A stretch of 9,214 nucleotides of DNA, from the IMG/VR virus record IMGVR_UViG_2695420793_000010. One strand, given 5' to 3'. Below, one piece after another: positions 1-9,214 of this stretch. The DNA comes from a virus (taxonomy: Duplodnaviria; Heunggongvirae; Uroviricota; Caudoviricetes). A program made the translations under genes and the position numbers. The stretch's first letter is position 1, and every line of letters begins with the position of its first letter. Below the pieces are notes generated by a model. It was not told the DNA's origin. It made no database searches and saw only the letters and a program-made list of their open reading frames with translations.

Positions 1-112
1 TCTGAGGCAGCACCTGGCACGGCTGGGACGGAAGTCGCTGTCGTTCTCAAAATCGGTGGAGCTGCATGACAAAGTCATCGGGCATTATCTGAACATAAAA
101 CACTATCAATAA
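1..112 (+). CDS. insB: IS1 transposase InsB, C-terminal fragment (partial at window edge)
   Basis: Translation matches the same InsB C-terminus as the 125-aa minus-strand ORF at 8821..9198; stop TAA at 110..112. Confidence 0.85.
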
Positions 113-127
113 GTTGGAGTCATTACC
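1..127 (+). mobile_element. IS1: IS1 right end (partial): 3' end of insB plus terminal inverted repeat ending at 127 (…aagttggagtcattacc); element body lies left of the window
   Basis: Frame-2 translation 2..112 gives [36 protein letters not shown], the InsB C-terminus; 105..127 is the reverse complement of the IS1 terminal repeat GGTAATGACTCCAACTTATTGAT. Confidence 0.9.
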
Positions 128-186
128 CTTCTTTCCTTCTTCGAACCAAACCGTGTACACCATCCGTTATCTGCGGAGGTGAGGCT

Positions 187-402
187 ATGAAATCCATGGA
201 TAAGTTAACAACGGGCATCGCCTACAGCACCTCTGCAGGCAGTGCTGGCTACTGGTTTTTACAGTTGCTCGATAAAGTCACGCCCTCACAGTGGGCGGCA
301 ATAGGTGTGCTGGGTAGCCTGGTATTTGGCCTGCTGACGTACCTGACAAACCTTTATTTCAAGATTAAAGAAGATAAGCGCAAGGCTGCGAGAGGTGAAT
401 AA
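187..402 (+). CDS. Class II holin, phage 21 S-like pinholin (71 aa) with dual-start motif
   Basis: MKSMDK… has Met1-Lys-Ser-Met4 (antiholin/holin dual start); GGAGGT at 176..181 five nt before the ATG; 71 aa; stop overlaps the endolysin start (TAATG). Confidence 0.9.
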
Positions 403-899
403 TGCCTCCATCATTACGAAAAGCCGTTGCTGCTGCTATTGGTGGCGGAGCAATTGCTATAGCATCAGTGTTAATTACTGGCCCAAGTGGTAACGATGGT
501 CTGGAAGGTGTCAGCTACATACCATACAAAGATATTGTTGGTGTATGGACTGTATGTCACGGGCATACAGGAAAAGACATCATGTTCGGTAAAACGTATA
601 CCAAAGCAGAATGCAAAGCCCTCCTGAATAAAGACCTTGCCACGGTCGCCAGACAAATTAACCCGTACATCAAAGTCGATATACCGGAAACAATGCGCGG
701 CGCTCTTTACTCATTCGTTTACAACGTGGGTGCTGGCAATTTCAGAACATCGACGCTTCTTCGCAAAATAAACCAGGGCGATATCAAAGGCGCATGTGAT
801 CAGCTACGTCGCTGGACATATGCTGGCGGTAAGCAATGGAAAGGTCTCATGACTCGTCGTGAGATTGAGCGTGAAATCTGTTTGTGGGGTCAGCAATGA
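402..899 (+). CDS. SAR endolysin (T4-lysozyme-fold, phage 21 R-like), 165 aa
   Basis: Gly/Ala-rich N-terminal signal-anchor-release segment ([20 protein letters not shown]) followed by a lysozyme domain with E…D…T spacing; start overlaps holin stop, stop overlaps Rz start (ATGA). Confidence 0.9.
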
Positions 900-1357
900 A
901 CAGAGTAACCGCGATTATCTCCGCTCTGGTTATCTGCATCATCGTCGGCCTGTCATGGGCTGTTAATCATTACCGTGATAACGCCATTACCTACAAAGCC
1001 CAGCGCGACAAAAATGCCAGAGAACTGAAGCTGGCGAACGCGGCAATTACTGACATGCAGATGCGTCAGCGTGATGTTGCTGCGCTCGATGCAAAATACA
1101 CGAAGGAGTTAGCTGATGCGAAAGCTGAAAATGATGCTCTGCGTGATGATGTTGCCGCTGGTCGTCGTCGGTTGCACATCAAAGCAGTCTGTCAGTCAGT
1201 GCGTGAAGCCACCACCGCCTCCGGCGTGGATAATGCAGCCTCCCCCCGACTGGCAGACACCGCTGAACGGGATTATTTCACCCTCAGAGAGAGGCTGATC
1301 ACTATGCAAAAACAACTGGAAGGAACCCAGAAGTATATTAATGAGCAGTGCAGATAG
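896..1357 (+). CDS. Rz: Rz i-spanin (inner-membrane spanin subunit), 153 aa from ATG 896
   Basis: N-terminal TM helix then coiled-coil-like charged region; position right after the endolysin; ATG 896 overlaps endolysin TGA 897..899; the ORF-track start at 884 is a GTG. Confidence 0.85.
1116..1298 (+). CDS. Rz1: Rz1 o-spanin (outer-membrane lipoprotein), 60 aa, embedded in the +1 frame of Rz
   Basis: Signal peptide with lipobox-like VVGC, proline-rich mature part ([16 protein letters not shown]); AAGGAG at 1103..1108 seven nt before the ATG; wholly inside Rz. Confidence 0.8.
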
Positions 1358-1381
1358 AGCTGCCCATATCGATGGGCAGCT
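1358..1381. terminator. Perfect 10-bp inverted repeat (agctgcccat-atcg-atgggcagct) between convergent Rz and bor; candidate bidirectional terminator
   Basis: Read directly: stem 1358..1367 / 1372..1381, 4-nt loop; sits between Rz stop (1357) and bor stop (1389..1391); no clear U-tract. Confidence 0.45.
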
Positions 1382-1388
1382 CATGCAA

Positions 1389-1682
1389 TTATTGTGAGCA
1401 ATACACACGCGCTTCCAGCGGAGTATAAATGCCTAAAGTAATAAAACCGAGCAATCCATTTACGAATGTTTGCTGGGTTTCTGTTTTAACAACATTTTCT
1501 GCGCCGCCACAAATTTTGGCTGCATCAACAGTTTTCTCCTGTCCAATTCCCGAAACGAAGAAGTGATGGGTGATGGTTTCCTTTGGTGTTACTGCTGTCG
1601 GTTTGTTTCCAACAGTAAACGTCTGTTGAGCACATCCTGTAATAAGCATTGCCAGAGCGGCAGAAAACAACATTTTTTTCAT
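1389..1682 (-). CDS. bor: Bor outer-membrane lipoprotein (lambda Bor / Iss family), 97 aa
   Basis: MKKMLFSAALAMLITGC… signal peptide with lipobox LITGC; near-identical to lambda Bor as recalled; AGGA 6 nt before ATG 1682; the 113-aa ORF in the track is an upstream in-frame extension. Confidence 0.9.
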   Translation of the reverse strand: MKKMLFSAALAMLITGCAQQTFTVGNKPTAVTPKETITHHFFVSGIGQEKTVDAAKICGGAENVVKTETQQTFVNGLLGFITLGIYTPLEARVYCSQ

Positions 1683-2168
1683 CTTATTATCCTGCATTGT
1701 TAAAAACGGCAGAATCCTATGTGACAACAATTAAACGATAGTTAAATGGATTGATGAAAATTAAAACTATATAGGTGTACGCTCAGACTATTGGAGGAAG
1801 TTGGGGACACTCAGAATCCTGTGGAATGAAATAAACCGGTCTATCCGTCTATTACCCTTTTAGCTGCGCTGTATCGTCGCCGTATTCCCGTATTAACAGA
1901 GACCGTAGCCCGACGGGGAACTCCTTCTGCGCGAGTATGCGGGAATAATCAAAAACGATGCACACCGGGTTTTTACCGCGTTTATGGTTCGCGGGTTTGT
2001 CCCTCATGCTCGCCAGTCCTGTGCGGGGGTGGAAGAAACAGGACACTTACACAGATTCTTGTGGGCACGATGCTATGCCTTTCTGGATTATCCCGATGCC
2101 ATTCATGCAAGGCGTTGTATCAGACGTTCGTCAGAGCTGTCAGGCTGACGGGTCCTCCCGGTGGGGTG

Positions 2169-2910: not shown

Positions 2911-4221
2911 ATGGGTTTTTCATCAGCCCGAAATTTGGGAAGGGACATATCGGCAGGATTTTCCCCACCACGTCGCATGCCGATTTCGGAGGCTGTTAAA
3001 AAATTCATGCGTGTTCCCAAGGGGGCTGGTAACTCGGTGCCATGGGATCCTGAACTGACACCCTACATCATTGAGCCCATGAACTGCCTGGCATCGCGTG
3101 AATACGATGCGGTGATTTTTGTTGGTCCTGCGCGAACAGGGAAGACCATTGGTCTGATCGATGGATGGATTGTCTATACCATCGTTTGCGATCCTTCGGA
3201 CATGCTCGTTGTGCAGATGACCGAAGATAAGGCCCGCGAGCATTCTAAAAAGCGCCTCGACAGAACGTTCAGAAGCAGTGCGGCGGTAAAGAAAAGAATG
3301 AGTCCACGTCGTAACGACAATAATGTCCATGATAAGACGTTCAGGGATGGCTCGTTCCTTAAAATTGGTTGGCCCTCGGTCAACATTATGTCGTCGTCGG
3401 ATTACCGGTTTGTCGCCTTAACCGATTACGACCGTTTTCCGGAGAATATCGACAGCGAGGGTGATGGTTTCTCCCTGGCCTCAAAACGTACCACCACATT
3501 TATGTCCGCCGGGATGACTCTGGTGGAGAGCTCGCCGGGACGTGACATCTGCGACAGCAAATGGCGACGTAAGTCGCCTCATGAAGCGCCACCGACGACT
3601 GGTATTCTTTCCCTTTACAATCGTGGTGACCGCCGCCGCTGGTACTGGCCATGTCCGCACTGCGGTGAATATTTTCAGCCAGCTATGGATGCCATGACCG
3701 GCTACCGTAATGAACCGGATCCCTTTAAAGCCAGTGAGGCGGCGTATCTACTTTGCCCACACTGCAGCGGCATTATCACTGCGGAGAAAAAGCGTGAGCT
3801 CAATAGTGCAGGAGTCTGGTTGCGTGAAGGTCAGGTCATTGATCGTAACGGCAACGTTTCCGGTGAACCGCGCCGCTCCCGTATCGCCAGTTTCTGGATG
3901 GAAGGGCCAGCTGCTGCGTATCAGGCCTGGGCGCAACTGGTTTACAAATTACTGACTGCAGAACAGGAGTATGAAGCGACAGGAAGAGAAGAAACACTCA
4001 GGGCGGTTATCAACACCGACTGGGGATTACCTTATCTTCCCCGCGCCAGCATGGAGCAACGAAAAAGTGAACTGCTTGAGCAGCGGGCAGAGCCAGTTCC
4101 TTCCCGCAGTGTGCCAGATGGCGTTAATTTCCTTGTGGCGACAGTGGATGTGCAGGCGGGACGTCATCGCCGTTTTGTGGTTCAGGTACCGGAGTCGGAA
4201 GTTGCCGGACCCTGCAGATGA
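2911..4221 (+). pseudogene. Terminase large subunit, GpA family, C-terminally truncated (436 aa versus about 640 aa full length)
   Basis: P-loop FVGPARTGKT, CPHCGE…LCPHC zinc-finger-like motifs and an INTDWG…VDVQ segment align with lambda gpA up to the start of the nuclease domain; AGGAGGA RBS at 2901..2907; ORF ends where the tail-fibre fragment begins. Confidence 0.8.
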
Positions 4222-5024
4222 AGGCGCATTACAGAAATGGTGGTCTGTTCTACCGTTCTTCAAGAGACGGTTATGGTTTTGAGGAAGGCTGGGCAGAAGT
4301 TTATACCTCGAAAAATCTTCCACCAGAAAGCTACCCAGTCGGCGCACCAATCCCGTGGCCATCAGATACCGTTCCGTCTGGTTATGCCCTGATGCAGGGG
4401 CAGACTTTTGACAAATCTGCCTACCCGAAACTTGCAGCCGCTTATCCGTCAGGCGTGATCCCTGATATGCGTGGCTGGACGATTAAGGGCAAACCTGCCA
4501 GTGGTCGGGCCGTATTGTCTCAGGAACAGGACGGCATTAAATCGCACACCCACAGCGCCAGCGCATCCAGTACGGATTTGGGGACGAAAACCACATCGTC
4601 GTTTGATTACGGAACCAAATCCACGAATAACACCGGGGCGCATACCCATAGTATTAGCGGGACCGCAAATAGTGCCGGTGCGCACCAACACAAGAGTTCC
4701 GGTGCATTTGGTGGCACGAACACGAGCATTTTCCCTAATGGTTATACCGCGATTTCAAATCTAAGCGCGGGGATTATGAGCACAACAAGCGGTAGTGGCC
4801 AGACTCGTAATGCAGGGAAGACATCATCAGATGGTGCTCATACCCACTCGCTGTCCGGCACTGCTGCAAGCGCAGGCGCACATGCACATACTGTCGGTAT
4901 TGGTGCTCATACGCACTCCGTTGCGATTGGCTCACATGGACACACCATCACCGTTAACGCTGCTGGTAACGCGGAAAACACCGTCAAAAACATCGCATTT
5001 AACTATATTGTGAGGCTTGCATAA
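4218..5024 (+). pseudogene. stf: Side tail fibre protein (Stf), C-terminal fragment only (268 aa ORF)
   Basis: …[11 protein letters not shown]…[49 protein letters not shown]…[31 protein letters not shown] matches the lambda Stf C-terminal region as recalled; the N-terminal fibre shaft is absent. Confidence 0.8.
4530..4960 (+). repeat. Histidine-rich repeat units (GAHTHS / GAHAHT / GSHGHT) inside the Stf C-terminal domain
   Basis: Repeated HxH motifs visible in the translation and as reiterated ggtgc(t/a)ca(t/c)ac(c/g)cac DNA units. Confidence 0.5.
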
Positions 5025-5605
5025 TGGCATTCAGAATGAGTGAACAAGCACGGACCATAAAAATTTATAATCTGCTGGCCGGAACTAATGAATTTATTGG
5101 TGAAGGTGACGCATATATTCCGCCTCATACAGGTCTGCCAGCAAACAGTACCGATATTGCACCACCAGATATTCCGGCAGGCTTCGTGGCTGTTTTCAAC
5201 AGTGATGAGGCATCGTGGCATCTCGTTGAAGACCATCGGGGTAAAACGGTTTATGACGTGGCTTCCGGCGACGCGTTATTTATTTCTGAACTCGGTCCGT
5301 TACCGGAAAATGTTACCTGGTTGTCGCCGGGAGGGGAATATCAGAAGTGGAACGGCACAGCCTGGGTGAAGGATACGGAAGCAGAAAAACTGTTCCGGAT
5401 CCGGGAGGCAGAAGAAACAAAAAACAGCCTGATGCAGGTAGCCAGTGAGCATATTGCGCCACTTCAGGATGCTGTAGATCTGGAAATCGCAACGGAGGAA
5501 GAAATCTCGTTGCTGGAAGCCTGGAAGAAGTATCGGGTGTTGCTGAACCGTGTTAATACAACAACTGCACCGGATATTGAATGGCCAGTAGCACCTATAG
5601 GGTAA
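5024..5605 (+). CDS. tfa: Tail fibre assembly protein Tfa (193 aa)
   Basis: [54 protein letters not shown]… closely matches lambda Tfa as recalled; start overlaps stf stop (TAATG). Confidence 0.9.
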
Positions 5606-7338: not shown

Positions 7339-8622
7339 ATGGATTTCCAGTTATATTCGCTCGGCGCAGCGTTGGTGTTTCATGAAATATTTTTTCCTGA
7401 ATCATCAACGGCAATGGCGTTAATTTTGGCAATGGGAACCTACGGTGCAGGTTATGTGGCGCGTATTGTCGGAGCATTTATTTTCGGCAAAATGGGCGAC
7501 AGAATAGGGCGTAAAAAAGTGCTCTTTATTACCATCACCATGATGGGGATCTGTACCACCTTAATTGGTGTGTTACCGACCTATGCACAGATTGGTGTTT
7601 TTGCCCCCATCTTGCTGGTGACGCTGCGTATTATTCAGGGGTTGGGTGCAGGTGCGGAAATTTCCGGTGCCGGTACGATGCTGGCGGAATATGCACCAAA
7701 AGGTAAGCGCGGAATTATCTCCTCATTTGTAGCTATGGGAACTAACTGCGGAACCTTGAGCGCAACGGCAATCTGGGCCTTTATGTTCTTCATTCTCAGT
7801 AAAGAGGAACTGCTGGCGTGGGGATGGCGTATACCGTTCCTGGCGAGCGTTGTCGTGATGGTCTTTGCTATCTGGTTACGTATGAATCTGAAAGAAAGCC
7901 CGGTCTTTGAGAAGGTTAATGACAGCAACCAACCCACAGCAAAACCTGCACCTGCTGGTAGCATGTTCCAGAGCAAATCCTTCTGGCTGGCAACAGGGCT
8001 GCGTTTTGGTCAGGCGGGTAACTCCGGGTTAATTCAGACTTTCCTTGCAGGCTATTTAGTGCAGACGTTATTGTTTAACAAAGCAATTCCAACAGATGCA
8101 TTGATGATTAGTTCGATTCTCGGCTTTATGACCATTCCGTTCCTTGGTTGGTTATCCGATAAAATTGGTCGCCGGATCCCGTATATTATTATGAATACCT
8201 CCGCGATTGTGCTGGCATGGCCAATGCTTTCTATCATTGTAGATAAAAGCTATGCCCCGAGCACCATTATGATTGCACTGATTGTGATTCATAACTGTGC
8301 GGTGCTGGGATTATTTGCTCTGGAAAACATTACCATGGCAGAAATGTTCGGCTGTAAAAACCGCTTTACCCGGATGGCCATTTCTAAAGAAATTGGTGGT
8401 CTTATCGCTTCCGGTTTTGGTCCTATCCTGGCGGGTATTTTCTGCACCATGACGGAATCCTGGTATCCGATCGCCATTATGATCATGGCATATTCAGTGA
8501 TTGGTTTAATCTCTGCGCTGAAAATGCCAGAAGTGAAAGACCGTGATTTAAGTGCGCTGGAAGACGCTGCGGAAGATCAACCGCGTGTTGTAAGAGCTGC
8601 GCAACCTTCCAGAAGTCTGTAA
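7339..8622 (+). CDS. ydfJ: MFS transporter, metabolite:H+ symporter family (ProP/ShiA/KgtP-like), YdfJ-like; 5' end probably disrupted
   Basis: 427-aa ORF with MFS signature GKMGDRIGRKK between predicted TM2 and TM3 and WGWRIPF motif; aligns to ProP/ShiA starting at their W-F/Y-D-F motif, so the N-terminal segment is short; no SD before ATG 7339. Confidence 0.85.
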   Translation: MDFQLYSLGAALVFHEIFFPESSTAMALILAMGTYGAGYVARIVGAFIFGKMGDRIGRKKVLFITITMMGICTTLIGVLPTYAQIGVFAPILLVTLRIIQGLGAGAEISGAGTMLAEYAPKGKRGIISSFVAMGTNCGTLSATAIWAFMFFILSKEELLAWGWRIPFLASVVVMVFAIWLRMNLKESPVFEKVNDSNQPTAKPAPAGSMFQSKSFWLATGLRFGQAGNSGLIQTFLAGYLVQTLLFNKAIPTDALMISSILGFMTIPFLGWLSDKIGRRIPYIIMNTSAIVLAWPMLSIIVDKSYAPSTIMIALIVIHNCAVLGLFALENITMAEMFGCKNRFTRMAISKEIGGLIASGFGPILAGIFCTMTESWYPIAIMIMAYSVIGLISALKMPEVKDRDLSALEDAAEDQPRVVRAAQPSRSL

Positions 8623-8710: not shown

Positions 8711-8805
8711 ATGGGAAATAATTTGTTATCAGCAAAAGCGACACTCCCTGTTTATGATCGTAATAACCTGGCCCCAAGAATTGTTCATTTAGGCTTTGGT
8801 GCATT
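8711..8805 (+). pseudogene. ydfI: 5' fragment of a mannitol-dehydrogenase-family oxidoreductase (YdfI/UxuB-like), cut by IS1 after about 32 codons
   Basis: [31 protein letters not shown]| matches the family N-terminus (…RIVHLGCGAFHRAHQ… in UxuB); TAAGGA RBS at 8699..8704; the frame runs into the IS1 terminal repeat at 8806. Confidence 0.6.
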
Positions 8806-9214
8806 GGTAATGACTCCAACTTACTGATAGTGTTTTATGTTCAGATAATGCCCGATGACCTTGTCATGCAGCTCCACCGATTTTGAGAACGACAGTGACT
8901 TCCGTCCCAGCCTTGCCAGATGTTGTCTCAGATTCAGGTTATGCCGCTCAATTCGCTGAGTGTAACGCTTGCTGATTACGTGCAGCTTTCCCTTCAGGCG
9001 GGATTCATACAGCGGCCAGCCATCCGTCATCCATACCACGACCTCAAAGGCCGACAGCAGGCTTAGAAGACGCTCCAGTGTGGCCAGAGTGCGTTCACCG
9101 AATACGTGCGCAACAACCGTCTTCCGGAGCCTGTCATACGCGTAAAACAGCCAGCGCTGGCGCGATTTAGCCCCGACGTATCCCCACTGTTCGTCCATTG
9201 CCGGGCAGCGACGT
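8806..9214 (-). mobile_element. IS1: IS1 (partial, continues past window end), inverted relative to the left IS1; terminal repeat ggtaatgactccaacttactgat at 8806..8828
   Basis: Terminal inverted repeat read directly; encodes the InsB C-terminal region on the minus strand; differs from the left copy at several positions. Confidence 0.9.
8821..9214 (-). CDS. insB: IS1 transposase InsB (partial; N-terminus beyond window end)
   Basis: 125-aa [40 protein letters not shown]…[13 protein letters not shown] is the InsB core and C-terminus; the frame stays open to the window edge. Confidence 0.85.

Follow-up and report, generated by a model that had tools for sequence, protein, structure and literature searches.

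The window, by which we mean the whole stretch of 9,214 nucleotides that was analysed, opens with the 3' end of an insertion sequence and passes through a short leader into a phage lysis cassette. It is the late end of a DicA-repressed cryptic prophage of the lambdoid, Qin-like kind, which occupies ydfJ. The features at its left end are listed below, with two reference loci: L001, the locus of E. coli AR_0128, and L004, the locus of STEC005, which is free of insertion sequences between Q and the holin gene.

1-127, plus strand: 3' end of an IS1A-type IS1 (C-terminus of InsAB' and right inverted repeat), identical to L001 12001-12127
128-186, plus strand: remnant of the holin leader, 59 bp, aligning to L004 6608-6666 directly 5' of essD in the IS-free genome
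187-402, plus strand: essD, phage-21-type class II (pin)holin of 71 aa (PF04971, E 2e-34, 117.7 bits)
402-899, plus strand: rrrD, SAR endolysin (lysozyme) of 165 aa (PF00959; alignment to 3hde_A)
896-1357, plus strand: rzpD, Rz-type inner-membrane spanin of 153 aa (PF03245, E 3e-54; RefSeq annotation; translation)
1116-1298, plus strand: rzoD, Rz1-type outer-membrane lipoprotein spanin in another frame inside rzpD (translation)
1389-1682, minus strand: iss/bor lipoprotein gene, which closes the cassette as in lambdoid phages (PF06291; RefSeq annotation)

The essD translation begins with MKSMDK and so offers two start codons, Met1 and Met4; the annotation of phage 434B lists both an S71 antiholin and an S68 holin. 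The rrrD product differs by one substitution from the full-length 165-residue lysozyme chain 3hde_A, and since the Gly/Ala-rich N-terminus is included in this alignment, a signal-anchor-release N-terminus can be assigned to it. The database names 3hde_A simply “Lysozyme”; we take it to be R21, the SAR endolysin of phage 21. The rzoD reading frame (60 aa, called rzoD in the annotation of one genome) carries a lipobox, LVVVGC, and a proline-rich body, which together with the PF03245 match of rzpD represents an Rz gene with an embedded Rz1 lipoprotein gene. The ribosome-binding site GGAGGTGAGG lies at 175-184 within the leader, and the junctions are present, the holin stop overlapping the endolysin start as TAATG at 400-404 and the endolysin stop overlapping the Rz start as ATGA at 896-899, in agreement with the sequence-only reading, which had described the holin RBS and the downstream start/stop overlaps as intact. 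None of the four lysis ORFs is shortened, and their DNA is 98.5% identical to phage records such as ev207, 2G7b, and PhiR11_1. By these comparisons the cassette is of the phage-21 type (pinholin, SAR endolysin, Rz, and Rz1) and is complete as genes. With phage 21 itself (S21 pinholin/antiholin, R21 SAR endolysin, Rz/Rz1) it shares the PF04971 double start MKSMDK and a near-identical endolysin, while the window cassette sits in a remnant without virion genes.

The left IS1 is complete in AR_0128, where it occupies L001 11360-12127 with the ends GGTGATGCTGCCAACTTACTGAT and ATCAATAAGTTGGAGTCATTACC; its 768 bp agree with the length of about 768 bp and the terminal inverted repeats of about 23 bp that characterise IS1. 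RefSeq annotates L001 11415-12112 as an IS1A family transposase with a programmed frameshift, and it is this annotation that identifies the left copy, PF03400 (InsA/InsAB') having been scored directly on the right-hand IS1 of the window only (E 4e-71). The transposase of the left copy points at the holin gene and ends with a stop codon at window positions 110-112; the right inverted repeat covers approximately 105-127, its last base is 127, and the gap to the holin ATG at 187 is exactly 59 bp (128-186). The earlier placement of the IS1 terminal repeat 59 bp before the holin start is thus confirmed by the identity of window positions 1-127 with a 768-bp IS1A copy. Among 5426 complete E. coli genomes the junction between IS1 and the leader occurs in 38 at a coverage of at least 80%, and in about 36 at 100% identity. 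Because it recurs across complete genomes, the junction is, on this sequence evidence, genuine and inherited, and no assembly artefact.

The window shows only 127 bp of this element, and what lies further upstream was read from near-identical complete genomes. AR_0128 agrees with the window at 8803 of 8805 positions (two differences), as do a dozen other complete genomes. Its order on the holin strand is Q, a tR'-like terminator, blc (opposite strand), ybgA, IS1, and essD at 12187. The Q antiterminator gene (L001 9045-9422, 125 aa, full-length PF06530, E 8e-50) has the same orientation as the holin gene, and its stop codon lies 2764 bp from essD. The 100-bp intergenic region that follows Q ends in a strong plus-strand intrinsic terminator (L001 9521-9552) with a stem of nine pairs followed by eight T, conserved in phage and folding with a z of -3.8 relative to shuffled sequence; the 200 bp 3' of Q are 97% conserved among prophages and phage Lambda_2E9. 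The best candidate for the late promoter past Q is TTGCTG-17-TAACAT, which scores 9.9 bits with the position weight matrix (PWM) and matches seven of 12 consensus positions. A simple consensus scan missed it, and its -10 differs in phage; two -10-like hexamers, TATTAT and TATAAC, lie 3' of it. The succession of Q, late promoter, and tR' is, as far as sequence can tell, the standard arrangement, with the promoter, Q-binding, and pause elements as candidates.

In both junction-bearing genomes inspected, Q and the promoter/terminator region are intact and lie on the same strand 5' of IS1. The late promoter region, with its candidate promoter, is in these genomes untouched by the IS1 event and stands 2.76 kb upstream of the cassette. 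The sequence-only reading had held that IS1 cuts the cassette off from any Q-dependent late promoter, which does not agree with the finding of Q and the tR'-like terminator 2.7 kb upstream in the relatives.

A long interval between Q and the holin gene is found in complete phages as well. The genomes of Lambda_2E9, 1H12, Lambda_ev087, and others have the order Q-blc-ybgA-HTH-S-R-Rz-bor, with 3050 bp from Q to S. Gene order is the same in these phages as at the locus studied, with DNA identity of 92.8% in the Q-promoter-terminator region and 95% in the lysis cassette; unlike the window prophage, these complete phages (46-48 kb) retain the AraC-type gene and its terminator and contain no insertion sequence. 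The deposited genome of phage 434B contains the DLP12 region with Q, then nmpC interrupted by a 1.2-kb IS5, then S, at a Q-S distance of 3058 bp. DLP12 (quuD - nmpC::IS5 - essD-rrrD-rzpD/rzoD-borD) shares with the window prophage the PF06530-type Q, the phage-21-type cassette, accessory DNA that separates Q from the holin gene and holds an insertion sequence, and a Q-S spacing of about 3 kb. However, in DLP12 the IS5 lies within nmpC, far from the holin gene, whereas the window prophage has an IS1 with an adjacent deletion of 1147 bp, 59 bp from the ATG; it also differs from DLP12 in its accessory genes (blc, ybgA, and the AraC-type gene) and in its ydfJ (Qin) site. With Q and S about 3 kb apart in complete phages, the late promoter was never adjacent to the holin gene, and the premise that it should lie within several hundred bp of the holin fails. 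In lambdoid phages that bear accessory genes the late promoter can be 3 kb from the holin, and a short holin leader is therefore no sign of lost Q control.

The mode of origin of the junction can be read from its flanks. The 9-bp sequences bordering the left IS1 are unlike (TAAAAATGC and CTTCTTTCC), and a target-site duplication of 8-9 bp was not found around this copy. Since the flanks differ, simple insertion does not account for the junction; the missing duplication marks it as a product of deletion or recombination and casts no doubt on the identity of the element as IS1. Relative to STEC005, with both flanks aligned, 1147 bp of DNA with 32% GC (L004 5461-6607) are absent, comprising a gene for a 237-aa AraC-type helix-turn-helix protein (HTH_AraC) and an intrinsic terminator (L004 6545-6576) that stands about 100 bp before essD. 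A single IS1 copy without target duplication, abutting a deleted interval, is the textbook outcome of IS1 adjacent deletion. From this configuration the origin is either such a deletion or recombination between two IS1 copies.

Two other origins were considered. A precursor formed by simple insertion, with a target duplication at either junction, was not found, all junction-bearing genomes having the order ybgA-IS1-essD. Nor is the junction likely to have come from an inversion between the IS1 copies at the two ends of the window, since these share 92% identity and genomes without the second copy have the junction too.

In the ancestral form, no promoter-like site was predicted on the plus strand between the terminator at L004 6545-6576 and essD, so the deletion took no recognisable proximal promoter. 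By comparison with the IS-free locus, the event cost the prophage an accessory gene and its terminator and no late promoter. Of the earlier interpretation there remains the interposition of IS1 between the late control region and the holin gene, with loss of regulatory DNA; the supposed loss of the late promoter and the rewiring drawn from it are not supported.

Neither the end of IS1 nor the leader appears to supply a promoter of its own. The consensus scan returned no sigma-70-like site on the plus strand of window positions 1-1800, the PWM scores of 61-186 reach at most 5.35 bits, short of the shuffle mean of 6.9, and a sigma-E-type motif (GGAACTT-N15-17-TCNAA) has no match in window positions 1-200 or in the ancestral leader. 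An outward -35 candidate of IS1, TTGGAG, is present at 114-119, and no -10 hexamer follows it at 16-18 nt, positions 136-143 reading CTTCTTCG. The IS1 end is known to bear an outward -35 that forms a hybrid promoter only with a correctly spaced -10 (PMC8764528); a hybrid promoter of this kind is described for afaA, whereas the essD leader has no such -10. An IS1-derived or hybrid promoter for the holin gene, which had been proposed as one source of expression, was therefore rejected on the empty consensus and shuffled PWM scans of 61-186 and the lack of a -10 at the required spacing. The promoter scans found no promoter-like site within 128-186. In its description of the sequence itself, the sequence-only reading was right on every point.

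As for terminators, none of the intrinsic type was predicted on the plus strand within IS1, and prediction likewise gave no terminator for the 59-bp leader or for the 3' end of IS1. Outside the window, 30 bp to the left of IS1, lies a near-consensus sigma-70 site, TTTACA-16-TATGAT (L001 11303-11330), which matches 10 of 12 consensus positions, scores 11.1 bits, and is conserved in STEC005 (L004 5404-5431). It probably served the deleted AraC-type gene as its promoter. Two upstream promoters, this site and that of the IS1 transposase, now face the cassette with no strong terminator between.

To place the locus among its relatives, the same interval may be compared across the 5426 complete E. 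coli genomes. An uninterrupted leader of the ybgA-HTH-holin form occurs in 844 of them, a contiguous ybgA-IS1-essD stretch in about 37, and ybgA and essD are linked within an IS1 distance in 38. Other lineages (loci L005, L009, L010, and L011) carry their own insertion sequences between Q and the holin gene, namely IS3 or IS1 in the AraC-type gene and IS1 in ybgA; in L010, IS1 has replaced Q and part of blc, next to corA. The IS1 copies of these lineages stand at positions differing from that of the junction with the 59-bp leader. As compared here by sequence, these repeated hits are the usual IS-driven erosion of a cryptic prophage. A separate rearrangement is a 3.8-kb inversion (L006 10391-14523) with endpoints in a DUF968 gene and in rrrD, found in E. 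coli EH01-18-02 and four relatives; in these five junction genomes it splits rrrD and keeps Q-blc-ybgA-IS1-essD together.

We suggest that the cassette still depends on Q, through read-through from the control region 2.7 kb upstream, and that the locus represents ordinary prophage decay; we give this reading a probability of about 0.65. The ancestral late operon would have consisted of Q (PF06530), the late promoter and tR', blc (opposite strand), ybgA, the AraC-type gene with its terminator, the holin, SAR endolysin, and Rz/Rz1 genes, and bor. Through IS1-associated deletion, or through recombination of two IS1 copies, 1147 bp of AT-rich accessory DNA would then have given way to one 768-bp IS1, whose right end halts 59 bp before the holin ATG, with the late promoter region spared. 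Q-modified RNA polymerase may be expected to read through tR', the accessory genes, and IS1 into the cassette, which would be transcribed only when Q is made.

Across tens of thousands of nucleotides, Q-loaded polymerase disregards both terminators and sites of pausing (bioRxiv 10.1101/651190). Since in the ancestral form it would cross blc, ybgA, and the terminator of the AraC-type gene, it should cross IS1 likewise. For K-12, control of the DLP12 lysis operon by its Q-type antiterminator is reported in a passage of PMC7918800 that cites Rueggeberg et al. 2013. The change would be neutral or degenerative decay, with no new control circuit. A regulatory rewiring of the lysis module, as had been proposed for this locus, is not evident, the late control region being present upstream and no new promoter being seen. 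The mobile element, the cassette, the deletion mechanism, and the occurrence of an insertion sequence between Q and S are all of already known kinds. The locus adds one more IS-eroded accessory region of a cryptic lambdoid prophage, and its importance is small.

The adverse effect of IS1 on downstream transcription deserves attention here, since IS1 insertions are classically polar, through Rho, and the element stands in line between Q and the holin gene. Rho-dependent termination in the poorly translated insB' may block late transcription, in which case the cassette would be transcriptionally dead and simply not yet mutated. An IS1 upstream of osmB, in the same orientation, lowered the osmB transcript (PMC8764528), and the inversion through rrrD in five of the 38 junction genomes suggests weak selection on the cassette; a literature search on IS1 polarity and internal terminators returned nothing direct. 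However, resistance of the Q-loaded polymerase to termination and pausing extends over tens of kb (bioRxiv 10.1101/651190), and a 1.2-kb IS5 occupies the same interval in phage 434B and DLP12, while the DLP12 operon is still described as Q-controlled in the cited passage of PMC7918800. The lack of a predicted plus-strand intrinsic terminator in IS1 and the full-length lysis ORFs, so close to those of ev207, 2G7b, and PhiR11_1, point in the same direction. On analysis, the processivity of the Q polymerase and the DLP12 and 434B precedents make silencing by IS1 polarity unlikely.

Somewhat less probable still is a supply of transcripts independent of Q. The promoter of IS1, weak and under InsA repression, counts against this possibility; even so, transcripts started there or at TTTACA-16-TATGAT could leave the right end of IS1 and enter the holin gene, giving expression that is low and constitutive or tied to IS1. 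The strength and conservation in L004 of TTTACA-16-TATGAT, the deletion of the sole strong terminator between it and essD, and the lack of a predicted terminator in the IS1 3' end and leader are consistent with such read-in, and IS1 elements do receive transcription from the DNA around them (PMC12428005). On the other hand, an ordinary polymerase would have to cross the 768-bp IS1, where insB' is rarely translated, so that Rho would probably terminate it; the candidate -10 of TTTACA-16-TATGAT is overlapped by a hairpin; and the outward TTGGAG, with no -10 at the right distance and a best score in 61-186 below the shuffle mean, adds no start of its own. Constant expression of holin and endolysin would, moreover, harm the cell. 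It is improbable, though conceivable, that the loss of the terminator exposes the cassette to the near-consensus accessory promoter and the InsA-repressed IS1 promoter and results in low, IS1-linked expression, which might for example affect the turnover of the envelope or the release of vesicles, effects reported for the cassette of DLP12. If read-in were true, the locus would illustrate, on a small scale and in nature, how a lysis cassette can slip out of antiterminator control.

Least probable of all is that in the source genome a further IS1-IS1 rearrangement has unlinked the left IS1 from Q and truly orphaned the cassette. In its favour, the window is bounded by IS1 sequence at both ends, the right-hand copy in ydfI is unique to the source genome, and IS1 has replaced Q itself in the L010 lineage. 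Against it, the two window copies are inverted with only 375 of 409 positions identical, and the ybgA-IS1-essD stretch is contiguous in about 37 genomes.

The remainder of the window bears further traces of prophage decay. The gene for the large terminase subunit breaks off within its nuclease domain (436 aa) and adjoins an ORF for a tail-fibre C-terminus (4218-5024), followed by tfaQ (5024-5605), the whole region covering 2911-5605; as read from this fusion, a single deletion took all head and tail genes of the prophage. At 7339-8622 lies ydfJ, an MFS transporter gene without its N-terminus, a chromosomal gene split by integration of a Qin-type prophage. The second IS1 (8806-9214), inverted and divergent from the left copy (375/409 identical), follows codon 31 of ydfI; a search of the 5426 complete E. 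coli genomes found this ydfI-IS1 junction in none, which makes it private to the source strain; that strain itself falls outside the set. The single match in the Rfam scan of the window was IS009, a candidate small RNA, at 5367-5565 on the plus strand (229 bits), which lies within tfaQ and is unrelated to the IS1 junction.
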